Assembly: GCA_963742765.1 (NCBI GenBank)
Contig: CAVUMY010000002.1
Location: 1,194,895-1,258,894, forward strand
Source of the DNA: an uncultured Actinomycetota bacterium
Lineage (GTDB): Bacteria > Actinomycetota > Actinomycetes > Propionibacteriales > Nocardioidaceae
Length of the DNA: 64,000 nucleotides
Direction of reading: 5' to 3'
The notes beneath the pieces were generated by a model. It was not told where the DNA came from. It was given only the letters and a program-made list of their open reading frames with translations, and did not search any database. Shown here piece after piece: positions 6,870 to 38,604 of this stretch. The translations under genes were made by a program, and so were the position numbers. The number at the start of each line of letters is the position of its first letter. Position 1 is the stretch's first letter.

Positions 6870-6941
6870 CGCCTCCCACGTTTGCACACCCGCCTGGGCG
6901 GGAACGTCCTTCGACAACGACCGTTGCCGTAGGAGGTGCCC

Positions 6942-9401: not shown

Positions 9402-10084
9402 CGATGCCCGGACCGACGGCACTGACGACGGAAACACCCCTGCGAGCTCGCGAGCTGTACCGGTTCTTCCGAGCGGGAGAAGAGGAGACGCTGGCCCTGC
9501 AAGGCGTCTCGCTCGACCTGAGTCGGGGCGAGCTCGTCGCCGTGGTCGGACCGTCGGGCTCGGGGAAGTCGACCCTCCTCAACCTGCTGGCCGGGCTCGA
9601 CGAACCCTCCGGCGGCACCGTCTGGCTCGGCGGCCTACGGATGAGCCACCAGCCCGAGACCGTAAAAACAGAGTTGCGGTCGCGGCAGCTAGGCGTCCTC
9701 CGGCAAGCAGACAACCTGCTCCCCTACCTCAACATCCGGGCGAACCTGACCATCCTGGCCAGAGTCCGGGGAGTCGACGGTCACGAGGACGAGCTCCTCG
9801 AGTCGCTCGGTATCGCCGGCCAGGCGAGGTCGCTGCCACACCAGCTGTCCGGTGGCGAGCTGGCCCGTGCCGGCCTCGCCTGTGCACTGGTGGGAAGCCC
9901 GCCCGTCCTGCTGGCCGACGAGCCGACAGGAGAGCTCGACGGAGACACCGAGGACGTCGTGCTGGAGCTGCTCCGCCACCAGGCAGCTCAGGGTGTTGCG
10001 GTCCTCGTCGCCAGTCACAGCCCCGCTGTTCATCGCCTGGCTGACCGGGTCGTGGAGCTGCTCGACGGACGGGTACGCCGATGA
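9398..10084 (+). CDS. ABC transporter ATP-binding protein (MacB/FtsE-like)
   Basis: Walker A GPSGSGKST, signature LSGGE, Walker B LLADEPTGELD. ATGA overlaps with both neighbours. Confidence 0.9.
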   Translation: MTMPGPTALTTETPLRARELYRFFRAGEEETLALQGVSLDLSRGELVAVVGPSGSGKSTLLNLLAGLDEPSGGTVWLGGLRMSHQPETVKTELRSRQLGVLRQADNLLPYLNIRANLTILARVRGVDGHEDELLESLGIAGQARSLPHQLSGGELARAGLACALVGSPPVLLADEPTGELDGDTEDVVLELLRHQAAQGVAVLVASHSPAVHRLADRVVELLDGRVRR

Positions 10085-10821
10085 CCAGCTTCGTAGGCCA
10101 CTCACCCCCGCCCCATCCGAGCGGCCCCGACCACCCCTCCATGTCGACGCCACTCGCGGTCTGTGAGCGGGCCGCCCGCACCTTCGGCTCCGGGCGACGG
10201 GCGACGGTCGCAGTCCACGACGCCTCCTGCACCATCCGGGCGGGCGACCGGATCGCACTGGTCGGGCCGTCCGGGTCCGGCAAGTCGACGCTGCTCCATC
10301 TCCTGGGCGGCCTCGACATACCCACGTCCGGTACCGTCCGCTGGCCGGCCCTCGACCACGAAGGCGCGCCCCACGGCAGCGAGGTCGCGACCGTGTTCCA
10401 GGCTGCCAGCCTCGTTCCCTCGTTGACGGTGCTGGAAAACGTCGGACTCCCCTTGCTGCTCGCAGGAAAGACCGCGGCAGAGGCCAACGACGCGGCCACC
10501 GCGGCCCTGGCCCAGCTGGCCATCGGCGAGCTCGCCCAGGCACTCCCCGAGGAGCTGTCGGGGGGGCAGGCACAGCGGGCCTCCGTCGCGCGCGCAGTCG
10601 CGAGCGGCCCACGCCTGCTGCTTGCCGACGAGCCGACGGGCAAGTTGGACCATCGGGCCGCCACCATCGTCATCGACGTTCTCCTCGAGGCCGCTGACGC
10701 GCTGTCGGCTGCGCTGGTGGTGGCGACCCATGACCACGCCATCGCCGAGCGGCTGAAGACCGGCTGGACCATGGAGTCGGGCCGTCTGCACGTAGCGGCG
10801 GCGGTCGTGGGTCGCAGATGA
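10081..10821 (+). CDS. second ABC transporter ATP-binding protein
   Basis: Walker A GPSGSGKST, signature LSGGQAQR, Walker B LLLADEPTGKLD. ATGA overlap with the permease. Confidence 0.9.
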   Translation: MTSFVGHSPPPHPSGPDHPSMSTPLAVCERAARTFGSGRRATVAVHDASCTIRAGDRIALVGPSGSGKSTLLHLLGGLDIPTSGTVRWPALDHEGAPHGSEVATVFQAASLVPSLTVLENVGLPLLLAGKTAAEANDAATAALAQLAIGELAQALPEELSGGQAQRASVARAVASGPRLLLADEPTGKLDHRAATIVIDVLLEAADALSAALVVATHDHAIAERLKTGWTMESGRLHVAAAVVGRR

Positions 10822-19596: not shown

Positions 19597-20104
19597 GGTG
19601 GGCCTCCCCGTGGGGGTCAGAAGCCGGTGATGTGTGGGGGCCGAGGACCTCGGCCAGGGCGGCGCGCCCGCGGGACAGCCGGGCCTTGACGGTGCCGACC
19701 GGCGCATCGACCTCGGCAGCGACCTGCTCGACCGACAGGTCGCAGAGGTGGTGCAGGACGATCGCCCGTCGCTGGTCGGCACCGATCCGGCTCAATGCGG
19801 CGACGAGGACGGCATGGTCCTCGGTCGGAGGTCGCACATCGGGGTCTGGCCCGCGGCGGCGGTGGGCCCGCAGCCGGGAGGTGGACTGGCGCCACCGGCT
19901 GACGCCGATGTTCCAGGCCACGCGGCGTACCCAGGCGTCGGGCCGCTCGGTCAGATCGAGCCGGCGCCGGTGCAGCCAGGCCCGCACGAAAGCCTCCTGG
20001 ACACAGTCCTGCGCCTCACTGAAGCTGCCGAGCATCGCGGTCAGCTGCCCCACGAGTCTGGGCGCCGTCGCGGCATAGAACTGGTCGAACTCGCCTTCGT
20101 CCAC
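19589..20104 (-). CDS. ECF-type sigma-70 family RNA polymerase sigma factor
   Basis: 171 aa. Region 2 (DCVQEAFVRAW, PDAWVRRVAWN) and region 4 HTH (LSVEQVAAEVDAPVGTVKARLSRGR). Confidence 0.9.
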   Translation of the reverse strand: MDEGEFDQFYAATAPRLVGQLTAMLGSFSEAQDCVQEAFVRAWLHRRRLDLTERPDAWVRRVAWNIGVSRWRQSTSRLRAHRRRGPDPDVRPPTEDHAVLVAALSRIGADQRRAIVLHHLCDLSVEQVAAEVDAPVGTVKARLSRGRAALAEVLGPHTSPASDPHGEAHHA

Positions 20105-27260: not shown

Positions 27261-28655
27261 TCAGGAGTCGAAGCCCAGCCCCAGCCGGTCGAGCGTGCGC
27301 AGCCACAGGTCCCGCCGCCCTTCGTTGCGGTCGGCCCGCGCGATCGATGCGCGGGTGATCTGCACCCCGGCGTACGCGAACGGCTCGGGCGGGAACGGCA
27401 CGGGTTTGGTCCGGACCAGCTTCGTCGCGGTCCGCTCTGTCTCTTCCCCCGACAGCAGGTCGAGCATCACCTGGGCGCCGAACCGGGTCGCACCGACCCC
27501 AAGGCCGGTGAAGCCTGCGGCGTACGCCGTCTGCCCGCCATGAGCCGTACCGAAGAACGCGCAGAAGCGGCTGCACAGGTCGATGGCGCCACCCCAGGCG
27601 TGGCTGAAGCTCAGTCCCTCCAGCTGGGGGAAGGTCGTGAAGAAGTGGTCGGACAGCAGGTCGAAGGTGGCTGGCCGTGAGTCCAGCGCGGGGCTGATCT
27701 TGCCGCCGAAGTGGTAGATCGCGTCGTAGCCGCCGAACAGGATCCGGTTGTCCGGGGTCAGCCGGTAGTAGTGGAACTGGTTGGCCGTGTCGCCGATGCC
27801 CTGCCGGTTGCGCCAGCCGATGGCGGCGAGCTGCTCGGCCGAGAGGGGCTCGGTGACGAGGGCGTAGTCGTACACCGGGGCGATGAACGGCCGCAGGCGT
27901 TTGACCAGTGCCGGGAACGCGTTGGTCGCGAGCACGACTTGCCGCGCCGTGAGAGATGCGTGCTTGGTCTGCAGGCGGATGCCGTCCGGCTCGCGCTTGA
28001 TCCCTTTGACGTAGGTGCCCTCGAAGATCCTGACGCCGAGGTCCTCGACGGCGCGCGCCAGACCCCAGGCCAGCTTGCCGGGGTGCACCATGACCGTGCC
28101 GTGCTCGTCCCAGAGTCCGGCCTGGTAGGTCGGGGAGGCGACCTCGCGACGTACCTCGTCGCGGTCGAGGAAGCGGCCGCCACCGGCCTCAGCGGCTTCG
28201 CGCAGGTCGGCCACCTGGTACCCCTCGGTGGCGACGTTGAGCTCACCGGTGCGCTCGAGGTCGCACTCGATGTCGTACTTGTCGAGGTCGGCCAGCAAAC
28301 CGTCGAGGTTCTCGTCGCCGAGCCGCTTGAGGGTGTCGAACTCATCGGGGAAACGGTCGCGGCCGTTGGCGTCGCCGTGGGTGATGCTGGCGTCGCAGAA
28401 GCCGCCGTTGCGTCCGCTCGCCGCCCAGCCGACCCGGCAGGCGTCGACCACCACCACGTCGCGGTCCGGATCTTGTTGCTTAGCGAGGAGGGCGGCCCAC
28501 AGGCCCGAGTACCCCGCGCCGACGATGGCCAGGTCGGTCCTGGTGGCCCGATCGAGGTGGGGGCGCTGGGGCGGCCGGATCGAGTCGTCCAGCCAGAACG
28601 ACGTACTGCTGGTCCCCCGCCACGACGACTCTTGCGCACCGGCAGCACTACCCAT
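27261..28655 (-). CDS. FAD-dependent oxidoreductase (DAO family)
   Basis: 464 aa with dinucleotide-binding motif DLAIVGAGYSGLWAAL. Confidence 0.85.
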   Translation of the reverse strand: MGSAAGAQESSWRGTSSTSFWLDDSIRPPQRPHLDRATRTDLAIVGAGYSGLWAALLAKQQDPDRDVVVVDACRVGWAASGRNGGFCDASITHGDANGRDRFPDEFDTLKRLGDENLDGLLADLDKYDIECDLERTGELNVATEGYQVADLREAAEAGGGRFLDRDEVRREVASPTYQAGLWDEHGTVMVHPGKLAWGLARAVEDLGVRIFEGTYVKGIKREPDGIRLQTKHASLTARQVVLATNAFPALVKRLRPFIAPVYDYALVTEPLSAEQLAAIGWRNRQGIGDTANQFHYYRLTPDNRILFGGYDAIYHFGGKISPALDSRPATFDLLSDHFFTTFPQLEGLSFSHAWGGAIDLCSRFCAFFGTAHGGQTAYAAGFTGLGVGATRFGAQVMLDLLSGEETERTATKLVRTKPVPFPPEPFAYAGVQITRASIARADRNEGRRDLWLRTLDRLGLGFDS

Positions 28656-28685
28656 GCCTCCATCCTGCCCGACCTGGCCGTAGGC

Positions 28686-28771
28686 GTTTGCCTAGTTCAC
28701 AAGCCAGGTGGCTGCAGAACTAGGCAAATTCGCCTCGAGAACAGGGCCTTTGCCTTGTTAACTAGGCAAAC
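28686..28771. repeat. two degenerate family-1 palindromic copies
   Basis: 28686-28728 is GTTTGCCTAGTTCACAAGCCAGGTGGCTGCAGAACTAGGCAAA, with a diverged right arm. 28749-28771 is TTTGCCTTGTTAACTAGGCAAAC, a mini-version that keeps only the outer arms. Confidence 0.8.
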
Positions 28772-28804
28772 GCGGCGGCCACCATCCGCAGTGGCGGCAG
28801 GCCG

Positions 28805-30349
28805 CTAGGACGTGGTGCAGGCGGGCGTGTCGACCGTCGGGAGGTCAGTGGGTACGCCGATCGACGGCATGCCGAGCGAGACTCCACCGCCGGACGGCGA
28901 GCCGCTCCCACCGGACGTGGCGCCACCGCCTCTAGTTCCAGCGGTCGCCCCGGAGGTGCGGGCCTCCCAGGCGTCACCCGCACGGGTTCGACGCACGGCC
29001 GTCACCGGGGTGTCGCTGACCAGGTGGTGCGGCGCGCCATACGTCACGTCGACCTCGACCACGTCTCCGGGGCGCACCGTCACCGAGGGGTCCGGGACGA
29101 AGTGCACGAGCCGGTTGTCGTGCGCCCGGCCGGACAGCCGCGCCTTGGCCGCGTCCTTGCGACCTTCCCCCCCGGCGACCAGCACCTCGAGGCGCCGGCC
29201 GACCAGCCGCTTGTTCTCGTCCCACGCGATCTCGTTGACGAGGTCGACCAACCGCACGTACCGCTCCTGCACCATGTCATGCGGGAGCTGATCGTCCATC
29301 GTGGCTGCGGGCGTCCCGGGCCGCTGGGAGTACAGGAACGTGAACGCTCCGCTGAACCGCGCTTCCCGCACGAGCGACAACGTCTGCTGGAAGTCGTCCT
29401 CGGTCTCGCCCGGGAAGCCGACGATGATGTCCGTCGTGATGGCGGCCTCGGGGATCTGCTCGCGCACGCGGTCGAGGATGCCGAGGTATCGATCGCGGCG
29501 GTAGGACCGGCGCATCGCCTTGAGCACCGTGTCGGACCCGGACTGAAGCGGCATGTGCAGCGAGGGCATCACGTTGGGCGTCTCGGCCATCGCCGCGATC
29601 ACGTCATCGGTGAAGTCACGCGGATGTGGTGAGGTGAACCGCACCCGCTCCAGGCCCTCGATCTCGCCGCACGCCCGCAGCAGCTTGCCGAACGCCTGCC
29701 GGTCGCCGAACTCGACGCCGTAGGAGTTGACGTTCTGGCCGAGCAGAGTGACCTCGATGACGCCCTCGCCGACCAGGGCCTCGACCTCGGCGAGCACGTC
29801 ACCCGGCCGGCGATCCTTCTCGGTCCCGCGCAGCGACGGCACGATGCAGAACGTGCAGGTGTTGTTGCACCCCACGCTGATCGCCACCCAGGCGGCGTAC
29901 GCCGACTCGCGGCGGGTCGGCAGCGTCGACGGGAACACTTCGAGCGACTCGAGGATCTCGACCTGCGCCTCGCGGTTGACGCGCGACCGCTCGAGCAGGG
30001 CCGGCAAGGAACCGATGTTGTGCGTACCGAAGACGACGTCGACCCAGGGCGCGCGTCGGGTGATCTCGGACCGGTCCTTCTGCGCCAGGCAGCCGCCGAC
30101 GGCAATCTGCATGTGCTTGTCGGCCGCCTTGCGCGGGGCGAGCTGGCCGAGGTTGCCGTACAGCTTGTTGTCGGCATTCTCGCGCACGGCACAGGTGTTG
30201 AAGACGACGACGTCGGCGTCAGTGCCCGGCGTCGCCCGCAGGTAGCCGGCGTCCTCGAGCAGGCCGGACAGCCGCTCGGAGTCGTGCACGTTCATCTGGC
30301 AACCGTGGGTCCGCACCTCGTACGTGCGGGGCTGGGCGTTTGGTTTCAT
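28805..30349 (-). CDS. miaB: tRNA-2-methylthio-N6-dimethylallyladenosine synthase; first ~7 codons supplied by the inserted element
   Basis: ATG at 30349 ([25 protein letters not shown]...). Contains the UPF0004 N-domain, the radical-SAM motif [11 protein letters not shown], a TRAM-like C-terminal part, and a Gly/Ser-rich tail. Confidence 0.92.
30107..30334. repeat. attL (miaB-derived direct repeat, left copy)
   Basis: Aligns without gaps to 35978-36205 at an offset of 5871 nt. The core 30228-30328 is 101 nt of perfect identity. There are 11 substitutions overall. Confidence 0.9.
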
Positions 30350-30368
30350 CAGACGAAAAGAGTATCTG

Positions 30369-31115
30369 GTGACCATCCGAGCACAGTTGGACCGCACGGC
30401 AATAGAGAAGGGGCTTCGGCAGAGCACTTACCTCTCGTACCTCAGACTCCTTGGCAGCTTGGGGATTCTCGACATGGAGACAGTGTCGGAAGACGAGGTG
30501 TTTTCACGCCTTTGGGCGCTTGAGAACCCCAACACGCGCCGCGCCGCCGTCATTGCCGTGAGGTCCGTGCTCGGCTTCAAGATGCGAATTCCCAAGGCCG
30601 TGCCTCGTCGGTATCAGCTGGAGTCCGAAGACACCCTGAGAATGGCTCTGATGCTGTCGCCGCATGAGTCCCGGGGACTGCTGATGATGTACGCGGGCCT
30701 GCGCATCGGAGAGGCGTGCGCAATCACGGGGAAGGACCGTGCAGGCGATAGACTGCGCGTAGACAAGCAGGTCCAAGAGTTGTACCAGACCGGCAAACCT
30801 CGTTCAGTCACGGTCGGCCCGGTCAAGACAAATGAGGCCAGCATCGTCATCCCGCACTGGTTGGCTCCGTACATCGACGCTCTGGACCAACGCCCTATAC
30901 CGTCATCTGTCCGAGAGTCACTCCGCCGTGCTGGAAGCAAGCTCGGCATACACCTCAACCCGCACATGCTCAGGCACTGGTACTGCACGACGTTGCTGGA
31001 ACGCGGTGTTTCCCTTGCCCTCGTGTCGCGTCAGATGAGGCACAGTGATGTAGCCGTGACGCTGAGGACCTACGCACAGACCAACGACGGAGATATCCAC
31101 AGAGCAATCGGCTGA
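30369..31115 (+). CDS. tyrosine recombinase/integrase (small, XerC/D-like)
   Basis: Catalytic signature GLRIGEA (Arg I), HMLRHWY (His-x-x-Arg II), and [13 protein letters not shown] (His...Tyr). The start is uncertain: GTG at 30369, or GTG at 30324 inside attL. Confidence 0.85.
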
Positions 31116-31535
31116 GGAAATCCCGCAAGGTACGGCTGGCTTCGAGACAGACGATGACGCGTCCACCGGAGGCCCGTCATTCACTGTCTTCTTTCGCCCT
31201 CATAGTGCAGTCTATTGGTACACATTCATCTACCAGCGCAACGTTAGAAAATTCCGGAGACGGACTAAACAGCGCCCTTCGCCGGGCATCTGCCTAGGGA
31301 TAGTGCGCACACAGATGACGCCGCCGGCTGGTCCCTAAGACAGGACCTAGCAGACCTCACCTTCCCCACTAGTCCCGTTCTGTCTCACCTGCAACGAGAT
31401 GCTTGCACCCTTACGGCGTCTCCGCTCACACTTGGGCAAGTGGAGTAGTTACACCGTTGTAGTTCTCCACGTCAAGTGCCCGTCCAAGTCTTGTCGGGTA
31501 CACCAGCATCACGAGAAGAAAGGTAGGCAACGAAG

Positions 31536-31700
31536 ATGAGGTGCCAAATTTGGAGGTCCACGAGCGGACAGTTCTTCGTCCGGGTCGTGGCGAGCAACGG
31601 GGCGATTCTTGCCCACAGTGAAACCTACGTGGCGAAGGTGGACGCACGTACCTGCGCCAACATCATCGCCAACGGAGGCACGGTTGAGGACAACGCCTAG
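31536..31700 (+). CDS. DUF1508 (YegP-like) small protein
   Basis: 54-aa ORF below the track threshold: MRCQIWRSTSGQFFVRVVASNGAILAHSETYVAKVDARTCANIIANGGTVEDNA. It matches the YegP repeat pattern (..G.y.F.l.a.NG.il..Se.Y..k......i..v). GAAAGG lies upstream. Confidence 0.6.
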   Translation: MRCQIWRSTSGQFFVRVVASNGAILAHSETYVAKVDARTCANIIANGGTVEDNA

Positions 31701-31723
31701 CTGCTGAGTCCTGTAAGCCGCGA

Positions 31724-31774
31724 GGCCCGAAGACGCGTCCGGATGCTTGACGGTCATCTGGAAGTCTTCGGGCC
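31724..31774 (+). terminator. long hairpin between the DUF1508 and recombinase genes
   Basis: GGCCCGAAGAC (31724-31734) pairs perfectly with GTCTTCGGGCC (31764-31774), with a 29-nt loop. It could be a terminator or a regulatory structure. Confidence 0.3.
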
Positions 31775-31854
31775 TTCGCGTTCTCAATCTAGCCCCTGGA
31801 CATCGCTATCGCCGGCTCAAACTCGAAATCCCTCCGAGCCTCGTTGACCGTGTG

Positions 31855-31882
31855 CATACATTAATCGTCCGTTTAATGTATG
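31855..31882. promoter_or_regulatory. 28-bp palindromic site immediately upstream of the serine recombinase gene
   Basis: CATACATTAA-tcgtccgt-TTAATGTATG has perfect 10-bp arms and ends 8 nt before the ATG at 31891. TTGACC lies at 31844-31849. Confidence 0.45.
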
Positions 31883-31890
31883 CTGTGGAC

Positions 31891-32556
31891 ATGAAGAAGC
31901 GAGCAGAAAAGGTCATCGGCTACCTCCGGGTGTCTACCGAGGAGCAGGCAATCAGCGGTCTCGGCCTGGCCGACCAGCGAGCAGTCATCGACGCAGAGGC
32001 CTCACGTCGTGACTGGTCTGAGGTGGAGTACTTGGCTGATGAGGGGTACTCAGCAAGGAACTTGTCGCGTCCAGCCATCTCGACAGCGCTCGATGCACTC
32101 CGCACGGGCGATGCCTCGGTGCTGGTCGTCTCGAAACTTGACCGGCTCTCTCGTTCGCTGCTGGACTTCGCCACCTTGATGGAGCGGGCGAACAAGGAGG
32201 GGTGGCAGTTGGTCGTTCTCGACCTGGCGCTTGACACCACCAGCCCATCAGGACAACTTATGGCCAACGTGATGGCGTGCTTCGCACAGTACGAGAGGCA
32301 ACTCATCGGAGCCAGGACCAGTGCGGCTCTCCAACAGTTGAAGAGGCAGGGTGTGCGACTTGGCCGACCCCGTTCGCTACCGGCCGCCGTTGTGGAGCGC
32401 ATAGTGGCGGAACGTCAGTCAGGAAGGACGATGGCAGCCATTGCCGATGGTCTTAACTCGGACGATGTGGCTACCGCACGTGGGGGAGCGCGTTGGTATC
32501 CGTCGACCGTCAAGGCTGTGCTCAGGTCCGCCCAACTGGATGCCAAGGCTGCCTGA
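31891..32556 (+). CDS. small serine recombinase (resolvase/invertase type)
   Basis: ATG at 31891. Catalytic N-terminus VIGYLRVSTEEQ, then VSKLDRLSRS and FAQYERQLIGARTS. The C-terminal part has GGARWYPSTVKAVL. Confidence 0.9.
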   Translation: MKKRAEKVIGYLRVSTEEQAISGLGLADQRAVIDAEASRRDWSEVEYLADEGYSARNLSRPAISTALDALRTGDASVLVVSKLDRLSRSLLDFATLMERANKEGWQLVVLDLALDTTSPSGQLMANVMACFAQYERQLIGARTSAALQQLKRQGVRLGRPRSLPAAVVERIVAERQSGRTMAAIADGLNSDDVATARGGARWYPSTVKAVLRSAQLDAKAA

Positions 32557-32638
32557 CAAGTCACTTACATCCGATGAGCGGTCAGGGCGCTCGGGGGCAA
32601 TCCACGAAAATGGCGAGGAAGAGGTCGTACCTCACAAG

Positions 32639-32968
32639 ATGACACTAGGAGCGGCTGAGACTGCGAAGCGGGTCCCGCCGACGACTCTCGTGACCACCGT
32701 CCTGGTCTTTGTGAACCTTGTGGCCGTCTACATCGAACTGCTTCTCGTGCTGGCGCACTATGAAGACCATGAGACGACCAACTATCTCCTACCCCAAGAC
32801 ATTTGGTTGCCGTTTATGACGTTGGTTCTTGGGCAGAGCCTCGTGAACGGGCTACTCCTTCTGACGTCGCCCAGAGTCCGCCGAATCGGCGCAGGCCTGC
32901 TGCTCGGAACAATGGGCGCCGTCGCTGCCTGGCTCTGCTGTGTAGCAGTGTTCGGGCCGGGCTCCTGA
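32639..32968 (+). CDS. small membrane protein (3 predicted TM segments)
   Basis: Internal ATG at 32639 (MTLGAAETAKRVPP...). Hydrophobic stretches LVTTVLVFVNLVAVYIELLLVLA, LPFMTLVLGQSLVNGLLLL and GLLLGTMGAVAAWLCCVAVF. Confidence 0.45.
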   Translation: MTLGAAETAKRVPPTTLVTTVLVFVNLVAVYIELLLVLAHYEDHETTNYLLPQDIWLPFMTLVLGQSLVNGLLLLTSPRVRRIGAGLLLGTMGAVAAWLCCVAVFGPGS

Positions 32969-33094
32969 CGGCGTCCGGACTTGCGGGCGTGGGCTCTGAA
33001 CTCCTAACCCGCCTGTTTGTCACTGCCCATCGTGGTGGGGTTGTGACTCTCTGCCAAGCCCTCTACCATGACACCACGCTAGGCTCCCTAGCGT

Positions 33095-33121
33095 CAGATA
33101 AATAAAGTGGGACCGGGGTCC
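33095..33121 (-). terminator. intrinsic-terminator-like hairpin plus T-tract on the minus strand
   Basis: The minus strand reads GGACCCCGGTCC followed by CACTTTATTTATCTG. It lies directly after the stop of the 33127-33294 candidate ORF. An 8-bp hairpin, ACGCTAGG-ctc-CCTAGCGT, lies next to it at 33076-33094. Confidence 0.4.
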
Positions 33122-33126
33122 AGCGA

Positions 33127-33294
33127 CTATTTTCTGGGCCTCGAAACAGTCTTACGCTGCTTCCTACGCTTAACTGATGGGTTCCGCCCAGTTGATTGGG
33201 GAAAGGTCTTTACCTGCCGTCGATGCGAACCCAGTGCATTAACCTTTTCATCTAGAGCGGTGTGGCCGCCATAGGTGGAGGTTGCGTACGTCAT
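33127..33294 (-). CDS. candidate 55-aa basic protein (very tentative)
   Basis: AGGAG lies 10 nt upstream of the ATG at 33294. Sequence: MTYATSTYGGHTALDEKVNALGSHRRQVKTFPQSTGRNPSVKRRKQRKTVSRPRK. The stop abuts the minus-strand terminator. No family recognised. Confidence 0.25.
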   Translation of the reverse strand: MTYATSTYGGHTALDEKVNALGSHRRQVKTFPQSTGRNPSVKRRKQRKTVSRPRK

Positions 33295-33560
33295 CGGCCG
33301 CAATCTCCTGGCGGTACGTCTTGAAGTTGCCTGCCCTGCCACTGAACATTCAATTTCTAACTTCCTGTTCACTTTTCCTGTTCAGCACAAACCAGCGGCA
33401 TGATGTACTTTACATATTCTTCCTCCAAGGGTCATAGATAGTTTTTCCTTTCTTTAGATACCTCGCTACGCTCGGGCACACGCTCTCTTCGTTCGCATGT
33501 GGCTTCTTTACTTTCTTTCAGTCTCATCTTTTCAGTCAGGGGAACGTAGTGACCCTGACC

Positions 33561-33590
33561 GGACGCTTGCGTCCGTTCTTTTCTTTCCTT
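33561..33590 (+). terminator. intrinsic-terminator-like hairpin plus T-tract on the plus strand
   Basis: GGACG-cttg-CGTCC followed by GTTCTTTTCTTTCCTT. It is preceded by a second hairpin, GTCAGGG-N11-CCCTGAC (33535-33559). Confidence 0.4.
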
Positions 33591-34164
33591 GTATATCTAT
33601 TTTTGGACAAGGCTATCCCTTGTAGGGACTTTTTATTGTCCAGCCTAGAGGTCGCTAACACTTTTCTAGGTAGCATTCCTGCTACGTGCTTAGGGCAAGT
33701 TACTTTACATCCAACCCGGTTACCACCACGTCTGGTTATACCGCCAGACCTGCTCGGTGGGGGCATAAAAAGTGTCCCCTGCAAGAACCGACTAAAGACC
33801 ATGCAGGGGACCAAACGATTCGCTTGAATCTATTAACGAGCGTCTTTCTGCTAGTCGGTTGCTTACATCTTCAAGTATACAGTAGAATGTCGGGTCTGTC
33901 AAGTTAAGACATGTTATAGGTAACTAGTTATAAATGACTTATATACGCCCTAGTTATGGCATTCGCTAGAAGGGCCATGATTTGAGAAAAATAGGGGGTC
34001 GACCTCTGGTCCGCCCGCTATCTATTAGGCGCTTAGACGGGCACGCAGAGCCTCCTAGCGTGCATCTAGCTTCCATAGGGCCAGAGATGCCATTGCTGAA
34101 AGTGGTGTAGTCCATGTGGTTAGCAAGGCGGCCGCATGAAGTGCTAGGAGAGGCTCAACGTCTC

Positions 34165-34584
34165 CTAGTTCACTCGTTCGAAGACTCCAACAACGCGGTC
34201 ATCGGCGTTGTAGAAACGCAGTTGGTCTCCTCCTAGGGATACGCGCACAACTGTGAGCATCGGGTTCGCCGCCGCCTTGACGCCATCCCAGCGAGAACCG
34301 CATCCGATTTGTGTACTTCCGAACGTCGGTATCACTGTCCCATCGGCAAGTAGGTCAAACTGCCCGCCAGCCGAATTGCAAGCGAAGGGCGCATCCCAAG
34401 TCAGCTGACCGTTCAACCGACTGAAGTCCAGACGGTCTAAGTTGCTCGGACGTGACTCGTCAACGGTGACGAGTTTGCCCTCTAGCTGGACCGCCTGCCA
34501 CGTGCCGATGAGTTCGTCCTCGGTCGGAGCCCTTGCCCTCAGTCCGGTCCGGTCGTGGGGCCGCTCACCGTGAGAATCGCGCAC
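34165..34584 (-). CDS. META-domain (HslJ-like) protein; start uncertain
   Basis: LIGTWQAVQLEG...FACNSAGGQF...GSTQIGC fits the META pattern (GxW...GCN..xGxy...T.maC). The only ATG overlaps the upstream gene by 46 nt. Confidence 0.5.
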   Translation of the reverse strand: MRDSHGERPHDRTGLRARAPTEDELIGTWQAVQLEGKLVTVDESRPSNLDRLDFSRLNGQLTWDAPFACNSAGGQFDLLADGTVIPTFGSTQIGCGSRWDGVKAAANPMLTVVRVSLGGDQLRFYNADDRVVGVFERVN

Positions 34585-35150
34585 GCCTTAGCGCTGGCGT
34601 TGGCGGTGCACAACAGATAGGGGCCGGCGGATGTGTCGGGAACAACAATCCGGTCCGGACCGGGACCGCTGACACCTATGTCGAACCAGCCCTTGTTTGC
34701 GCCGTTGTCGACGCGCCACCAATCCGGCTTCCAGCCAAGCCCGTCGCCGCCGTCTGACGTCAAGTAATACTCCGGGTCGGCCCAGGCGCTTCCGGTCCAC
34801 GAGGCGAGCGAGTACGCAACCCCTCTGCTACTGGTCGAAGGGAAGTGCATCGCAACAATGGCACCTGGTGGCGCGGTCGACGGTTCGAGCGTCATAGTGC
34901 CCTGCCATCGGCTGTCGAGCGTTGGCTCAGTCGCGTCCGCCGGCGCCGGGCCGCCATTCGCACCTGGACGGATGAGGAGCGCAACCCCAATGACGGCGAC
35001 TAGAGCGGCGGTGGACAGAGACGCGGCGAGGACCGAGCGTCGCCGCCTCATGTGCTGACCCTCTCGGCGGGCTTCCTCTATCGGGGCATGGCCGACCTCG
35101 ATTTGCTCGACCCGTTCGGCCAGCCTCGTCCTGACCTCTGACTCGTTCAT
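34539..35150 (-). CDS. single-pass membrane protein downstream of the element ECF sigma (putative anti-sigma)
   Basis: ATGA overlap with the sigma gene. TM segment VLAASLSTAALVAVIGVALLI and an extracytoplasmic domain of unknown family. Confidence 0.55.
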   Translation of the reverse strand: MNESEVRTRLAERVEQIEVGHAPIEEARREGQHMRRRRSVLAASLSTAALVAVIGVALLIRPGANGGPAPADATEPTLDSRWQGTMTLEPSTAPPGAIVAMHFPSTSSRGVAYSLASWTGSAWADPEYYLTSDGGDGLGWKPDWWRVDNGANKGWFDIGVSGPGPDRIVVPDTSAGPYLLCTANASAKACAILTVSGPTTGPD

Positions 35151-35653
35151 GTTGGACTCCTGTCTGGTCCGCCTGCGAGGTGCCGACTCGCGGCCAGTTG
35201 CCGAAGGGCCCTGGACTGTCTGCTCTTGACCGTGCCGACCGGCAGACCAAGAGCGGCCGCTGTCTCGGCCTCCGTGAGGTCCGCGTAGAACCGAAGCACG
35301 ACGACTGCTCGTTGGCTGTCGTCCAGGTCTCGTAGGGCGCGGTCGACAGCGTCGGACCGGTCCACAGCCTCGGCCGGCTCCGCACTGGTCGCGGGTTCTG
35401 GCATGACTGCCGTCGGTCGCTCACCCCACCAGCGACGACGGCGACTGTCGTTGTAAGCATTCACCAGAACCCTGTACACGTATGCCTCTCGGTCATCGGC
35501 GCGCGCGACCTTCGACCACGACATGTAGCAGCGGGCCAGTGCCGTCTGGGCGATGTCCTCGGCATCGTGCGGTGAGCAGCCCAGCAGCACGGCGGTGCGT
35601 ACCAGCGCAGGCCAGCGCGCCGACATGTAGGCGGCGAACTCCTCGGCGTCCAC
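35147..35653 (-). CDS. ECF sigma factor (SigE-like subgroup) carried by the element
   Basis: 168 aa. Region 2 (DAEDIAQTALARCYMSW, EAYVYRVLVNAY) and region 4 (AVVVLRFYADLTEAETAAALGLPVGTVKSRQSRALRQL). Confidence 0.88.
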   Translation of the reverse strand: MDAEEFAAYMSARWPALVRTAVLLGCSPHDAEDIAQTALARCYMSWSKVARADDREAYVYRVLVNAYNDSRRRRWWGERPTAVMPEPATSAEPAEAVDRSDAVDRALRDLDDSQRAVVVLRFYADLTEAETAAALGLPVGTVKSRQSRALRQLAASRHLAGGPDRSPT

Positions 35654-35682
35654 GGGCCCCCAATCTGTCCTGACACCACAAT

Positions 35683-35709
35683 GACGGGTCAGGAGGCGTC
35701 AAGGGTTCC
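35683..35709 (-). promoter_or_regulatory. ECF-type promoter candidate upstream of the element sigma gene
   Basis: The minus strand reads GGGAACC-N16-CCGTC (GGAAC...CGTC). It lies 30-56 nt upstream of the sigma ATG, consistent with an autoregulated ECF promoter. Confidence 0.3.
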
Positions 35710-35965
35710 CCTTGCGTACAAAACGTGTCAGGTTGGCCTGGCGGGTGGACAGGAGTGAACACCGATGTCGCAGATGCACCCCGCGGATTCGTCAGCACCC
35801 GCCGCAGTGCCCTCGCGTTGGTTTTCCAGTGAACAACCCCCCTGTCGCCGGAGCATTCCAGTCCGTCAAACGGCTCCTGAGGCCTTCCCAGAGGGTGCTC
35901 CGGGCTGGCTTCGACGGCATGGCGGTCGACTCAGGTAGAGTCCCATCTACAAATCCACACTGAAA

Positions 35966-36229
35966 CTAAACGCTGCGCTGCATGTGCTTGTCGGCCGCCT
36001 TACGTGGGGCCAGCTGGCCGAGGTTGCCGTACAGCTTGTTGTCGGCGTTCTCGCGGACGGCGCAGGTGTTGAAGACGACGACGTCCGCGTCCGTACCGGG
36101 CGTCGCCCGCAGGTAGCCGGCGTCCTCGAGCAGGCCGGACAGCCGCTCGGAGTCGTGCACGTTCATCTGGCAACCGTGGGTCCGCACCTCGTACGTGCGT
36201 GGCTGCGCTGCCGTGGGAGTCGCCGTCAT
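35966..36229 (-). pseudogene. miaB: native 5' fragment of miaB left behind by the insertion
   Basis: 87 codons: [32 protein letters not shown]...AADKHMQ, then RSV-stop. It is identical at the protein level to residues 6-81 of the intact gene. Confidence 0.88.
35978..36205. repeat. attR (miaB-derived direct repeat, right copy)
   Basis: See attL. The perfect core is at 36099-36199. Confidence 0.9.
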
Positions 36230-36254
36230 AACCGCCCCAGCCTAAGCGACCGCA

Positions 36255-36308
36255 CCGAGTTGTCAGAACCGAGCCGGCCTATGGCGCTACTGGGTTCTGA
36301 CAACTCGG
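36255..36308. repeat. family-2 hairpin element, copy 2
   Basis: CCGAGTTGTCAGAACC-N22-GGTTCTGACAACTCGG has perfect 16-bp arms. It lies 25 nt upstream of the native miaB ATG (36229) and 5 nt downstream of the VOC gene stop. Confidence 0.9.
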
Positions 36309-36313
36309 ACGGG

Positions 36314-36715
36314 CTATTCGCCGGGGTAGTCGCCGAAGCTCCACTGGTTGCCTTCGGGGTCCTGGACGACGAAGTTGCGGCCGCCGTAGTCCTGCGCGGT
36401 CAGCGGTCGGACCACCTTCGCCCCGGCCGCCGTCGCGCGCGAGAAAAGCTCGTCGAGGTCGATCGTGTCATCCACGACGCAGTACGCCGAGGCGTGGCCG
36501 GTCGGGTCGGTCATGCCGTCGGGGCGCGGCCCGGAGCCGAGCATGATGCCGCCACCCGGCGGCCAGTCCAGCTGGGCGTGCATGATCTTCGTGGGGTCCG
36601 ACTCGTCGTAGTAGACCCCATGGGCGACGAAGCCGAAGGCGGCGGACAGGAACTCGACGGCGGCCGGCGCATCGCGGTAGCTCAGCGAGTGCCACACGGT
36701 GGGAGACGGGCTCAT
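36314..36715 (-). CDS. VOC (glyoxalase/bleomycin-resistance) family protein
   Basis: 133 aa with the paired beta-alpha-beta-beta-beta pattern (VWHSLSYRDAPAAVEFL...FVVQDPEGNQWSFG). One-nt TGATG overlap with the AraC gene. Confidence 0.8.
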   Translation of the reverse strand: MSPSPTVWHSLSYRDAPAAVEFLSAAFGFVAHGVYYDESDPTKIMHAQLDWPPGGGIMLGSGPRPDGMTDPTGHASAYCVVDDTIDLDELFSRATAAGAKVVRPLTAQDYGGRNFVVQDPEGNQWSFGDYPGE

Positions 36716-37596
36716 CAGGACTCCTTCAGGTTCGGGTCGAAGCGGATGACTTCAGCATCTCCGCCAGCGCCCGCGCCGTCTTGAACGAATGGGAGCTCGG
36801 CCCGGATCCACTCCCCCGGCGTGTATCCACACAGGTCTCGCCACTCGCGCGTCATGTGCGCCTGGTCAGCGAACCCACAGGCAAAGCCGACCTCGGCGAT
36901 CGGCTGCGCCAGCTGTCGCATCATGGCGTGCGACCGTTCGAAGCGCGCGAGCCGCCGCGCGTCCGTGGGGGACAGCCCGGTCTCCGCGCGGAACTGCTCA
37001 CCCAGGTGGCGACGGCTCCAGCCGACATCGGACGCCACCTCCGCCACGCGCGGCGCAGCACCGCCGGGTCCGGTCAACCGTGCCCAGGCGTGCGCCACCT
37101 CGGCCCGGGCGGGCTGGGTGTCCTCGCCGACGGCTGCCAGCTCGGTCAGCCCTCGACCGAGCGCCGCGAACCGTTCCGGCCAACCGGCCGCGTCCGCCAC
37201 GACGTCGTACAGCCGGCGGCCCCGGGCACCGAGAACGTCATCGACGGACACCAGCTGACCCTGCACAGCGGAGGCAGGTAGCCCCAGGAGCAGCCTGGCA
37301 CCTGCGAGCGTGAGGCCGAGCGAGATGCCCTCCTGCCGGCCCCACTGGCGGACATCTGCGGCCTCGACCGACAGGCCCGACACGACTGCCCAGAAGCGCT
37401 GCTGAGTCTCGGCGCGCCCGTACCACCCCACGTCGAGCGGCTGACCGAAAGCGAGCACGACCGTCAAGGTCGTGGACGGCATGCCGCGGTGGGCGGTCTG
37501 GGCACCCGCGTCGTAGCAGTAGCCGGACGCCTGCGTGACGTACGGACGCAGCGCAGCGGGCGGCCGCCACGAAGCCCCGCGACCCAACTCGGACAC
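36715..37596 (-). CDS. AraC-family transcriptional regulator
   Basis: C-terminal HTH region SDVGWSRRHLGEQFRAETGLSP...GFADQAHMTREWRDLCGYTP. A GTG start at 37596 was chosen so that the repeat element is not translated. The track ORF extends to 37665. Confidence 0.78.
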   Translation of the reverse strand: MSELGRGASWRPPAALRPYVTQASGYCYDAGAQTAHRGMPSTTLTVVLAFGQPLDVGWYGRAETQQRFWAVVSGLSVEAADVRQWGRQEGISLGLTLAGARLLLGLPASAVQGQLVSVDDVLGARGRRLYDVVADAAGWPERFAALGRGLTELAAVGEDTQPARAEVAHAWARLTGPGGAAPRVAEVASDVGWSRRHLGEQFRAETGLSPTDARRLARFERSHAMMRQLAQPIAEVGFACGFADQAHMTREWRDLCGYTPGEWIRAELPFVQDGAGAGGDAEVIRFDPNLKES

Positions 37597-37616
37597 ACCC
37601 CGAGCGTACGACGATT

Positions 37617-37670
37617 CCGAGGTGTCAGAACCCAGTCGGCCTATAGCGCTACCGGGTTCTGACAAGTCGG
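37617..37670. repeat. family-2 hairpin element, copy 3
   Basis: CCGAGGTGTCAGAACC-N22-GGTTCTGACAAGTCGG. It lies 20 nt upstream of the AraC GTG and 1 nt downstream of the oxidoreductase stop. Confidence 0.85.
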
Positions 37671-37671
37671 G

Positions 37672-38604
37672 TCAGACGGTGACGACGACCTTGCCGCGCA
37701 CGTGACCGGCCCTGTTGGCCGCCAACGCGTCACCGGCGCGGTCGAGAGGGAACTGCTCGGCGATCTCCACCCGCAGCGACCCGTCGGCGACCAGCGCGAG
37801 CAGGTCGGCCAGCATCGGGCCGTTCGGCCGGACGAAGATGTAGCGCCCACCCAGCTTCTTGACGGTGTCGGCGTCGACGATCGAGCCAAGACGGCCGCCG
37901 TCCGCGAGCACGTCGGGGGCGGACTCGAGCGAGTCGCCACCGATGAAGTCCAGCACCACGTCCACGCCGTCGGGAGCGACCTTGCGCACGTTGGCGGTCA
38001 GCTCGGCGGCGGATTCGCCGTACTCGACGGGCTCGGCACCGATCGAGCGGACGTAGTCGTGGTTGCGGGCGCTCGCCGTGCCGATCACGCGAGCACCACG
38101 CAGCTTCGCCAGTTGAACGCCGATACCGCCGACGCCGCCCGCGGCCGCATGCACGAGCACCGTGTCACCCTCGCCGACCTCAGTGGCGTCGATGAGCTGC
38201 TGGGCAGTCAGGCCGACCAGCGGGAGCGCGCCGGCGCTGACGAGGTCGACACCGTCCGGCACCTTGGCCACCGCGCGGATGTGCGCGGCCACGAGCTCGG
38301 CAAACGTTCCGTTCTGCACATGGTCCTTGCGGTTGTAGGCCGCCACCCGGTCTCCCGGAGCGACCTCGGTCACTGCGGGTCCGACGGCGACGACCTCGCC
38401 GGCGACGTCCCAGCCGGGGATCAGTGGCAGGTGATGCGGGAAGGCGCCCTGCAGGTAGCCGGCCACGACCTTCCAGTCGACGGGGTTCACCCCGGCAGCA
38501 GCGACCTTGATCAGGACGTAGTCGGGGCCGACCAACGGGTCGTCGACCTCTGCGGTCTCGACGACGTCAGGGTCTCCATAGGCTCGAATCACAGCGGCTC
38601 TCAT
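37672..38604 (-). CDS. NADPH:quinone oxidoreductase / zinc-type alcohol dehydrogenase-like (MDR) protein
   Basis: 310 aa. N-terminus MRAAVIRAYGDPDVV and Rossmann motif VHAAAGGVGGIGVQLAK. Confidence 0.88.
   Translation of the reverse strand: MRAAVIRAYGDPDVVETAEVDDPLVGPDYVLIKVAAAGVNPVDWKVVAGYLQGAFPHHLPLIPGWDVAGEVVAVGPAVTEVAPGDRVAAYNRKDHVQNGTFAELVAAHIRAVAKVPDGVDLVSAGALPLVGLTAQQLIDATEVGEGDTVLVHAAAGGVGGIGVQLAKLRGARVIGTASARNHDYVRSIGAEPVEYGESAAELTANVRKVAPDGVDVVLDFIGGDSLESAPDVLADGGRLGSIVDADTVKKLGGRYIFVRPNGPMLADLLALVADGSLRVEIAEQFPLDRAGDALAANRAGHVRGKVVVTV

Follow-up and report, generated by a model that had tools for sequence, protein, structure and literature searches.

This locus raises the question of how a segment of ~5.6 kb with a GC content of 0.59, against 0.69 outside, came to lie between two copies of the 5′ end of the tRNA-modification gene miaB, and whether the gene survived the event. 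The window, meaning the whole 64,000-nucleotide stretch of DNA that was analysed, belongs to a Nocardioides-like actinobacterium. We consider it highly probable that positions 30338-35977 of the window are a small integrative island, inserted by its own arm-less tyrosine integrase through an attachment site (attP) that mimics miaB, with MiaB restored in the process.

The repeated 5′ end of miaB and its empty counterparts

A repeat search returned a direct repeat of 231 nt, free of gaps and 95% identical, at positions 30107-30337 and 35978-36208, both copies being read on the minus strand. The initial annotation had described two gapless miaB-derived repeats with an offset of 5871, a 101-nt core and 11 substitutions, and realignment confirmed these values: the core at 30228-30328 is identical to 36099-36199, and the copies differ at exactly 11 of 228 nt, one at 30329 and ten within 30131-30227. 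Codon comparison placed all 11 differences at third codon positions, where they are synonymous, and both copies encode the same residues from QPRTYEV to KHMQ.

The integrase-proximal copy forms the junction of a rebuilt, full-length miaB (28805-30349, minus strand; 514 aa), which contains the Pfam domains UPF0004 and Radical_SAM and is 86% identical to the orthologues of relatives. Read in the sense of miaB, it passes from an element-derived start and first codons through the shared core into the host miaB body. The distal copy forms the junction of a displaced stub of 87 codons (35966-36229, minus strand) with UPF0004 only; here the host upstream region, presumably with the promoter, and the native N-terminus (MTATPT...) are followed by the core and then by element-borne miaB to approximately codon 84, and the stub terminates as RSV and a stop codon directly after KHMQ. 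The same division into a full gene on the left and a stub on the right had been proposed initially, and both ORF calls and Pfam agree with it. A native -10-like hexamer, TAGGCT, is found 9 nt upstream of the stub ATG, and five native sites show a TANNNT hexamer at the same distance of 9 nt ahead of the ATG. To the rebuilt gene the element contributes the residues MKPNAQ and, at the native spacing, the -10-like hexamer TACTCT; orthologues vary in their N-terminal residues ahead of RTYEV. The target gene is predicted to be complete after insertion, encoding a 514-aa MiaB with both domains.

In three of the four closest relatives found, the junction between the glyoxalase gene and miaB is uninterrupted, and both window repeat copies map onto it. 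The gene order in one of these, locus L021 (MiaB 86% identical), is AraC-glyoxalase-miaB-DAO with no insertion; window positions 37525-35978 and 30334-27260 both align to L021, their overlap at L021 positions 10025-10252 is exactly the repeat, and the distal copy is contiguous with this empty site. The gene is also uninterrupted in L028 (MiaB 85% identical) and L027 (82%), and in all three the empty site is joined within the repeat. Because relatives with an uninterrupted glyoxalase-miaB junction match both repeat copies, we regard the window segment as an insertion. The empty sites and the rebuilt 5′ end also agree with the earlier proposal of site-specific integration by an element that brings a surrogate gene end.

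The integrase, its attachment sites and the island genes

The integrase (30369-31115, plus strand; 248 aa; PF00589, E 4.5e-14) starts at a GTG that lies 19 nt from the miaB start codon, and not at 30324 as first annotated. The catalytic residues of its R-K-HxxR-H-Y set (R111, K152, H198, R201, H224 and Y234) show no variation among 24 homologues, and the family numbers 406 homologues of ~250 aa each. An AlphaFold2 model with a pLDDT of 86.7 predicts helices at 2-67, forming a four-helix core-binding domain, and a catalytic fold at 86-247; its best structural matches are XerA, IntI4, residues 82-397 of Tn1549 Int (without the arm domain) and Brujita Int. As modelled, the enzyme belongs to the simple class of integrases, with core-binding and catalytic domains only and without an N-terminal arm-binding domain. 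No prior description of a miaB-targeting integrase family was found in the literature, and no recombination directionality factor was found.

Mismatches inside the repeats of four related elements (L034, L032, L022 and L048), together with the repeat end of a fifth (L007), leave only TGYCAGATGA, the stretch coding for Cys-Gln-Met in GCQMN, for strand exchange. We infer that strand exchange is confined to this segment, which in the rebuilt miaB reads TGCCAGATGA (30292-30301, minus strand; twin at 36163-36172), a mapping that presupposes no gene conversion after integration. Across the family, a motif search found three copies of a 14-bp motif, GATGAAnCnnCACG, in attP, far above chance: a direct copy (site A), the core, and an inverted copy (site B). 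Site A of the window, GATGAAACCAAACG (30337-30350, minus strand), includes the surrogate ATG of the rebuilt miaB and carries a different base from that of L022, the closest relative, at 3 of 14 positions. Of 17 reconstructed attPs, 15 have the site A motif at a distance of 49-84 nt on the upstream side of the crossover, against a chance expectation of 0.003 per 40-nt window. Site B, TACAAATCCACACT (35948-35961, plus strand), is 211 nt from the crossover in the window versus 47-85 nt in relatives. A divergent site A or a displaced site B could cripple excision. Our binding-site model is incomplete, because no obvious inverted half-site was found on the left side of the presumed core.

Integron attI sites carry accessory IntI-binding repeats, DR1 and DR2. 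The window attP resembles them in pairing a simple tyrosine recombinase with a site flanked by extra core-like motifs, as opposed to arm sites of a separate domain, and IntI4 (2a3v) is among the top structural matches of the integrase. However, function, target and site arrangement differ, and the A and B motifs here are putative integrase sites.

The genes called initially between the repeats, namely a tyrosine recombinase, a DUF1508 ORF, a serine recombinase and an ECF sigma factor, were all recovered with Pfam. The DUF1508-like ORF (31536-31700, plus strand; 54 aa) scores 25.5 bits against a cutoff of 22. The small serine recombinase (31891-32556, plus strand; 221 aa; Resolvase domain, E 7e-37) is the second gene conserved across the island lineage and shows 65-75% DNA identity to the recombinases of six related loci (L022, L015, L026, L019, L011 and L001). 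Its ATG is preceded, 8 nt upstream, by a 30-bp palindrome (31854-31883; 14 + 2 + 14) that related islands conserve and that probably serves this recombinase as a binding site or operator. An ORF call then gives a predicted small membrane protein (32639-32968, plus strand; 109 aa from the ATG at 32639), for which Pfam, NCBIfam and PHROGs held no family match.

Beyond it lies an AT-rich segment (33090-34160; GC 0.45-0.49, no ORF longer than 92 aa) without a match in phage or plasmid collections. Sequence comparison identified within it a conserved non-coding motif of ~118 nt (33643-33760, plus strand), which is common to a glnA-targeting mini-phage (L044-46) and two phage contigs of 49% GC (L088 and L126) and matched no Rfam family. 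This phage-shared motif is the only hint of a link to a helper. The remaining cargo is an operon on the minus strand (34165-35653; Pfam and NCBIfam) encoding an ECF sigma factor of the SigE family (35147-35653, above the cutoff of the NCBIfam SigE model), a single-pass anti-sigma candidate (34539-35150) and a protein with a weak META-domain match (34165-34584). Non-coding DNA makes up approximately 2 kb of the island's 5.6 kb. The description of all island genes as visibly lower in GC holds for the integrase and serine recombinase (~0.60) and for the AT-rich segment, but not for the ECF sigma and anti-sigma genes, at 0.66-0.675 against 0.70 in the host.

As the initial annotation had stated, no replication, transfer or phage structural genes were detected. 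Searches of the island ORFs against Pfam, NCBIfam and PHROGs found no FtsK/TraB-type translocase, Rep protein, relaxase or capsid gene and no known defence gene, and no window ORF had a PADLOC match. We rejected an integrative conjugative or mobilisable element, given that translocase, Rep and relaxase domains are all absent, and likewise a known anti-phage defence island, given the PADLOC result. Since the island encodes nothing for replication, transfer or packaging, its movement between cells would have to depend on a helper.

Related elements and known systems

The element family, left unrecognised in the initial annotation, can be recognised by sequence through its integrase, which is common to mini-phages and MulchRoom-type satellites. 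A miaB core is present at most 260 nt upstream of int in 33 of 45 non-redundant related loci, and these miaB-linked loci include islands of 2.5-10 kb, mini-phage genomes of ~16 kb and MulchRoom-like capsid-forming satellites in Nocardia. Ten further elements are flanked by repeats of 29-90 bp of the same miaB segment, with GC below the flanks and different cargo in each, and the same junction with different cargo recurs in many genera. An ancient fixed locus, the possibility against which the first reading was to be checked, does not fit, as cargo differs in every related element and GC is ~0.1 below the flanks in all. Non-integrated genomes of ~16 kb (GC 0.51) carry a free attP, with int next to a miaB mimic of 20-26 codons and without the miaB body; such free relatives lend indirect support to excision as a circle. 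At least 13 loci pair the integrase with a serine recombinase, and structural-gene homologues were found in none where tested; cargo among relatives includes restriction-modification-like and ImmA/DUF4411 genes, and larger relatives encode terminase, portal, capsid or Rep/helicase-like genes. From these comparisons, one widespread integrase family appears to direct islands, mini-phages and phage satellites alike into miaB.

The window repeat is 3-8 times longer than the repeats of these relatives, the extra miaB amounting to ~150 nt (codons ~22-84), and we read the long repeat as an anomaly from captured miaB DNA. As none of the 11 differences alters a residue and each falls at a third position, the extra DNA would have been taken from the functional gene of a former host, most simply by imprecise excision. 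The chance of 11 synonymous changes out of 11 is near 1e-6, a rough estimate in which ~28% of random substitutions are taken as synonymous. The synonymous-only divergence of the window copy would be a record of host-gene capture, showing attachment sites lengthening over time.

The nearest phage-database match of the window integrase is that of MulchRoom, at 36.6% identity. MulchRoom and MiniFlayer are capsid-forming satellites of Streptomyces phages, and the MulchRoom paper reports no attachment site (PMC10690885). No miaB mimic was seen in MulchRoom's own genome. Two Nocardia loci (L006 and L008) and two IMG/VR contigs (L065 and L066) carry MulchRoom-like terS, terL, portal, scaffold, capsid and adaptor genes together with integrases 59-60% identical to that of the window; a miaB stub lies just upstream of int in L006 and L008, and the contigs L065 and L066 end right at int. 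The window island itself was rejected as a MulchRoom-type capsid-forming satellite, there being no terminase, portal, scaffold or capsid match in the window.

DusA-associated integrases are a dedicated tyrosine-integrase family that targets the 5′ end of dusA, a tRNA-modification gene; their elements replace the displaced 5′ end and supply promoter-like signals, leaving the gene intact, and the module serves islands and prophages (Farrugia et al. 2015, PMC4482086). The present family is alike in its target at the 5′ end of a tRNA-modification gene, in gene restoration and in a module common to islands and phages. Here, however, the hosts are Actinomycetota and the enzyme is a 248-aa two-domain protein without an arm-binding domain, and with miaB in place of dusA as the target we set it apart from that family. 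SXT/R391 elements, the subject of work by Hochhut and Waldor in 1999, reportedly insert in the 5′ coding end of prfC and supply a new promoter and N-terminus, and SXT, at roughly 100 kb, is said to be conjugative and to encode both an excisionase and an integrase of the lambda type. The island described here likewise occupies the 5′ coding end of a housekeeping gene, but it is 5.6 kb long and without transfer genes.

The IntBrujita subgroup comprises mycobacteriophage simple integrases (PMC8138268; structure 5vfz). Brujita Int and the window integrase both have core-binding and catalytic domains only and both come from actinobacterial hosts; the family profile matches 5vfz at E 1e-08, with 20% identity in structural alignment, and Cluster N mycobacteriophage integrases are ~31% identical to the window integrase. 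Identity to Brujita-type integrases is therefore only ~20-31%, and the window family differs in its A and B motif copies and its protein-coding target. Brujita, treated by Lunt and Hatfull in 2016, reportedly uses a small attP to integrate at a tRNA gene. PICMIs are similar small islands, with an integrase and few other genes and with helper phage-dependent spread; those are found in Vibrionaceae and have experimental helper induction, whereas the helper dependence of the window island is hypothetical.

Route of entry, present state and significance

In the mechanism that we propose, the attP of the island would imitate the first codons of miaB, and the island's own arm-less integrase would catalyse entry into the chromosome, with exchange in the invariant TGYCAGATGA. 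Integration would split miaB, leaving the native upstream region (presumably the promoter) and the first ~19 codons behind as the stub, while a replacement -10-like element, the start codon and the opening few codons would come from the island, such that a complete MiaB would still be encoded; the extra miaB codons would descend from a working copy of the gene in a previous host. The repeat, the empty sites, the link of integrase and target across the family, the free forms of attP, the intact catalytic residues and the motif architecture are shown directly, whereas the exact place of the crossover, the use of the promoter, activity today and the route of transfer are points that we infer.

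It is possible, though doubtful, that the island is now an immobilised remnant of a mini-phage or satellite that has lost its structural and replication genes and can no longer excise. Such decay would be in keeping with the lack of replication, packaging and transfer genes that larger relatives possess in part, with the large non-coding share and its phage-like segment of 0.49 GC bearing the phage-shared motif, and with the divergent site A and displaced site B. Nevertheless, neither recombinase ORF is disrupted and their catalytic residues are conserved, the 101-nt core has no mismatch, and the synonymous-only divergence of the captured miaB implies a move to a new host after capture; the loci that pair integrase and serine recombinase without structural homologues point to a maintained lineage, not repeated decay.

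Unlikely, in our view, is an entry of this copy in which RecA paired the 228 nt of miaB on the island with the host gene and joined them by homologous (Campbell-type) recombination, exchange being possible anywhere in the 101-nt identical tract. Lying inside 231 nt of homology, that tract is long enough for RecA, and this insertion therefore need not have used the integrase; one difference 5′ and ten 3′ of the tract fit a single crossover anywhere within it, and the displaced site B may weaken integrase-mediated recombination. However, an intact integrase adjoins the junction, the ten relatives that are integrated at this position have just 29-90 bp of homology, and, as either route gives an identical product, nothing requires RecA.

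We would also like to put forward, as a conjecture rather less likely still, that the island and its integrase/serine-recombinase relatives live as minimalist hitchhikers that depend on actinobacterial phages or satellites as helpers. Their entire self-encoded toolkit would consist of an arm-less integrase with a three-site attP mimicking miaB, a serine recombinase with its 30-bp palindrome, which would resolve concatemers or tandem copies or else autoregulate, and a phage-derived structured non-coding motif acting as a packaging, replication or regulatory signal. That the miaB 5′ end was duplicated long ago as a segment and passed on vertically, without any mobile element, is extremely improbable, as nothing speaks for it except the duplication itself and the near-host GC of the ECF module, and against it stand the empty sites in three close relatives, the fall in GC by 0.1, the integrase directly beside the junction, the recurrence of that junction with other cargo across many genera, and the 11 of 11 synonymous changes, which neutral decay of an in-situ duplicate would not yield.

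Understood as a miaB-restoring integrative island, the locus extends current understanding without overturning it: gene-restoring integration at a 5′ end, known from dusA and prfC, is extended to a new gene, integrase clade and phylum. Integrative elements of Actinomycetota have mostly been catalogued at tRNA genes. The module described here is compact (a 248-aa integrase and roughly 150 bp of attP) and its target is predictable, with the target sequence occurring in practically all examined miaB genes of Nocardioidaceae and Mycobacteriales. It provides an annotation marker for islands, mini-phages and satellites in Actinomycetota and a candidate tool for single-copy integration in actinomycetes without inactivation of the target gene, and, for MulchRoom-type satellites, it makes the connection to a landing site in the chromosome, a point left open in their description.

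Insertion at the 5' end of miaB

The two miaB-derived direct repeats claimed in the initial annotation were recovered by alignment and repeat search as a gapless pair (30107-30337 and 35978-36208) at an offset of 5871 nt, with 95% identity overall and an identical core (30228-30328 = 36099-36199). The copies differ at 11 positions, one at 30329 and ten within 30131-30227, and all 11 differences are synonymous and fall at third codon positions. Gene calls and domain matches likewise agree with the proposed full-length miaB on the left and 87-codon stub on the right. The left repeat copy continues into the body of a 514 aa gene on the minus strand (28805-30349) with UPF0004 and Radical_SAM domains, referred to here as the rebuilt miaB, and the right copy belongs to the stub (35966-36229), which keeps only the start of UPF0004. 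No tRNA or tmRNA genes were found in the window, and an Rfam search over 28000-38000 gave no match at E <= 1. The lower G+C content ascribed to the whole island holds in part: GC is ~0.70 in the flanks and drops to 0.60 across the recombinase genes and to 0.49 within the AT-rich segment (33090-34160), but the ECF sigma and anti-sigma genes, at 0.66-0.675, are close to the host value.

In a database search, the window's MiaB was nearest to proteins of Nocardioidaceae genomes and metagenome bins, with a top identity of 86%, and we compared the miaB locus of four such relatives (fetched loci L021, L028, L027, and L020). L021 has the gene order AraC, glyoxalase, miaB, DAO, and window positions 37525-35978 and 30334-27260 both align to it, overlapping within its miaB at L021 10025-10252, which corresponds to the repeat. 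In L028 (85%), genes are ordered as in the window flanks and glyoxalase and miaB are direct neighbours, and miaB is likewise intact in L027 (82%). The uninterrupted miaB that the initial annotation had anticipated in relatives is thus present in these three, and neither an integrase nor a stub was found at the glyoxalase-miaB locus of L020. The empty sites, together with the use of the same target by most of the integrase loci compared, support site-specific insertion, and the comparison with relatives shows that the ~5.6-kb segment in miaB is an insertion.

The L020 locus (GCA_038259225.1) carries a separate 3.1-kb cassette in its glyoxalase-miaB spacer. The cassette codes for a META-containing protein of 487 aa and an ECF sigma factor that shares 53% identity with the island's, and has neither a recombinase nor a miaB stub. 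It is bounded by ~128-bp direct repeats (2 mismatches) of an intergenic terminator-hairpin region, at ~6750-6880 and ~9870-10000, and represents a second event, by a different mechanism, that placed a similar module at the same spot. The presence of a similar module in L020 could suggest that the ECF module is ancestral at the miaB locus; we rejected this given the level of sigma factor identity and the separate insertion of the L020 cassette with its own repeats. Per precomputed Pfam hits, the RecA of L020 (1-1971) also contains a LAGLIDADG_2 insertion in an intein-type arrangement, and the RecA proteins of L021 and L027 are ordinary.

The integrase family and its targets

The island's 248 aa tyrosine integrase begins with a GTG at 30369, 19 nt from the rebuilt miaB start codon on the opposite strand, and matches only the PF00589 catalytic-domain model. 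A database search retrieved 406 homologues, the best 120 of which are nearly all ~250 aa long (213-300 aa) at 58-100% identity, and the catalytic R, K, HxxR, H, and Y residues are invariant in an alignment of 24 homologues. An AlphaFold2 model (pLDDT 86.7) predicts the catalytic fold preceded by an N-terminal domain of four helices; an arm-binding domain would not fit. The top structural and profile matches were archaeal XerA, IntI4, Tn1549 Int minus its arm domain, and mycobacteriophage Brujita Int. Because of its domain content and these best matches, we class the integrase as a 'simple' tyrosine recombinase in the classification of PMC8138268, the enzyme class of the arm-less Brujita-type integrases. 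No excisionase-like ORF was found between the integrase and the DUF1508 gene.

We scanned species-representative genomes, metagenomes, and IMG/VR for integrase homologues and obtained 60 loci; targets were counted in the 45 that were non-redundant and had sufficient sequence upstream. The miaB segment TGYCAGATGA (the Cys-Gln-Met codons of the GCQMN motif) lies <=260 nt from the integrase start in 33 of the 45; in 27 of these the integrase and miaB diverge, the arrangement also seen in the window, and in 6 the integrase runs in the same direction after a short stub. In six other loci the integrase sits where a glutamine-synthetase-like gene (MGKQEDFVLRALEERD...) begins, and in the last 6 the target is other or undetected. 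Ten further miaB-targeting elements (L007, L016, L019, L022/23, L026, L032, L034, L041, L042, and L048) are delimited by 29-90-bp direct repeats and span 2.5-10 kb, and L011, at the glnA-like site, has a 52-bp bounding repeat. Element GC is ~0.1 under that of the flanks wherever measured. Cargo varies between elements and includes a restriction-modification-like pair, ImmA/IrrE with DUF4411, a Dam-type methylase, an AAA_25 helicase-like protein, a Rep-like HTH protein, Lsr2, and a second recombinase.

The integrases that target the glutamine-synthetase-like gene form a sub-clade (~50-60% identity; L009, L011, L043-L046, L049, and L054) and lie at the gene's start codon; the L011 repeat includes that start (MGKQEDFVLRALEERD...). 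The ImmA and DUF4411 cargo is common to L011 and the miaB-targeting L026.

The family extends to phage-like genomes. Five IMG/VR contigs (L059-L062 and L064) have a GC of ~0.51 throughout and all encode the integrase, with L059 and L060 also encoding a replication initiator, an HNH nuclease, a large terminase, a portal, and a protease-capsid fusion. L059 ends 60 nt upstream of the integrase; in the other four the integrase adjoins a 20-26-codon mimic of the miaB start, and kilobases of upstream sequence contain no body of the gene. These mimics are the attP sites of non-integrated ~16-kb genomes. The same configuration of integrase and miaB mimic is found at high GC in L063 and L040. We would like to note that the 29-kb IMG/VR contig behind L060 (1-20741 vs L059) holds more than one unit of the ~16-kb mini-phage, the units being 84-98% identical, and could reflect two related elements in tandem, a concatemer, or a chimeric assembly.

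Two Nocardia loci (L006 and L008) and two IMG/VR contigs (L065 and L066) encode an integrase 59-60% identical to the window's alongside structural genes similar to those of MulchRoom, a capsid-forming phage satellite of Streptomyces, with homologues of terS, terL, portal, scaffold, capsid, and adaptor. L006 and L008 (13.8-20.7 kb) have inserted into the 5' end of miaB, where a stub of 20-30 codons immediately precedes the integrase; L065 and L066 end right at the integrase. The description of MulchRoom mentions integrated relatives and gives no attachment site (PMC10690885). We found no miaB-like attP in the MulchRoom genome and no MulchRoom structural genes in the window island. The EPIPs, phage satellites of Mycobacteriaceae, use serine integrases and are unrelated.

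Strand exchange, attP architecture, and history of the window copy

Because the repeat mismatches in L034, L032, L022, and L048 lie 5' of GGGTGCCAGATGA and the L007 repeat ends at CAGATGA, strand exchange can be placed within TGYCAGATGA (window 30292-30301 / 36163-36172), if there was no later gene conversion. In L048, identity is interrupted on either side of TGTCAGATGAA. A crossover within the upstream palindrome CGCAC-CTACGAG-GTGCG was rejected, as L034, L032, and L048 have mismatches within or 3' of that palindrome, which put the exchange further 3'.

We rebuilt the attP of each element from its two junctions and compared these with the free forms. A 14-bp motif, GATGAAnCnnCACG, occurs at three places: directly oriented 49-84 nt upstream of the exchange (site A), within the miaB sequence at +5, and inverted at +47 to +85 (site B). 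Of 17 attPs, 15 have it at the A position and 11 have it at the B position; the loose motif has a frequency of 8e-5 per nt in the comparison loci, giving 0.003 expected per 40-nt interval. We infer that the three copies are putative integrase-binding sites, comparable to the accessory repeats at integron attI sites. In the window, site A (30337-30350) departs from that of the island's closest relative (L022 731-744) at 3 of 14 positions (CCAAACG vs CTCCACG) and also provides the rebuilt miaB with its start codon, making it a dual-use sequence under two constraints.

The window repeat is 3-8x longer than any relative's because the stub runs ~190 nt past the exchange, to codon 84, and this extension also leaves site B (35948-35961) 211 nt from the exchange. 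That the differences between the copies are exclusively synonymous is unlike the neutral decay of a duplicate formed in situ and resembles the divergence of two orthologous functional genes. In the simplest history compatible with these sequences, imprecise excision in a former host, or repair templated on the adjacent gene, would have added that host's miaB codons ~22-84 to the island, which would then have been transferred to the present host. Entry could have been through the integrase at the core or through homologous recombination in the 101-nt identical tract, and the sequence fits both equally.

Accessory genes, regulatory signals, and relation to known systems

The 221 aa serine recombinase (31891-32556) is the sole gene besides the integrase conserved at the DNA level among islands (65-75% identity) and accompanies this integrase in at least 13 loci. 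The serine recombinases of L007, L034, and L048 are distant, being an HTH_7-type resolvase by Pfam in L007 and L034 and ~30% identical by tblastn in L034 and L048. Eight nt upstream of the window gene's ATG is a 30-bp palindrome with perfect arms (14 + 2 + 14; 31854-31883), which overlaps a TANNNT hexamer. Its position and half-sites are kept in five to six related islands, including L022, L015, L026, L019, and L011, and its central dinucleotide varies among islands; no second copy was found in the window. We read the palindrome as the recombinase's candidate operator and possibly its crossover site, and resolving tandem or concatemeric copies is one possible role for the pair.

The window island's cargo comprises a SigE-family ECF sigma factor, a single-pass anti-sigma candidate, and a weak META-domain protein. 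No terminator was predicted between the stub and the ECF operon, and transcription that starts in the native miaB upstream region may therefore continue into the operon. The META ORF shares 46 nt with the anti-sigma candidate in another reading frame (34539-34584), an overlap that may reflect a frameshifted single gene (compare the single 487-aa META protein of L020) or a mis-called start. Two more ECF sigma paralogues occur in the window, at 63568-63993 (43% identical to the island's and running off the window end) and 19625-20104 (29%). At 5 of 5 native sites, a TANNNT hexamer lies 9 nt upstream of the miaB ATG; the rebuilt miaB has TACTCT at the native spacing, and several relatives instead have a copy of the native-type TACCCT.

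Within the AT-rich segment, a non-coding motif of about 118 nt (33643-33760, plus strand) shares 75-85% identity with sequences of the glnA-targeting mini-phage L044-46 (L045 1807-1928, minus strand) and two 49%-GC phage contigs (L088 219-320, minus strand; L126 5347-5441, plus strand). Its core reads CCGGTTAtCC...TGGTTATACCGCCAG...CCTGCnCGGT, one of its hairpins shows compensatory changes (GTCTGG/CCAGAC vs GCTTGG/CCAAGC), and terminator-like hairpins follow it in L088 and L126. Searched alone in Rfam, the motif retrieved only chance-level matches and no family. A 14-mer scan of IMG/VR gave mostly chance matches, with L088 and L126 the only real ones; a stricter two-block pattern returned the same two, and a covariance model found no more copies among the comparison loci. 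The AT-rich segment as a whole had no match in phage and plasmid collections and no convincing translated match, and its folding z-scores reach only about -3. A sigma-70-like promoter at 33902-33874 (minus strand) was a single prediction that did not rise above shuffled sequences.

The element SXT targets the 5' end of the housekeeping gene prfC and supplies a replacement start. The DusA-associated integrases likewise act at the 5' end of their housekeeping target gene, whose start is replaced (PMC4482086). The window island follows the 5'-end, gene-restoring strategy of both systems. No paper describing miaB as an attachment site in Actinomycetota came up in our literature search. Within the literature searched, the miaB target, this integrase clade, and its common use by islands, mini-phages, and MulchRoom-like satellites appear to be new. 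The principle itself is not new; the miaB-targeting attachment site and its integrase family are a useful and well-delimited addition to it.
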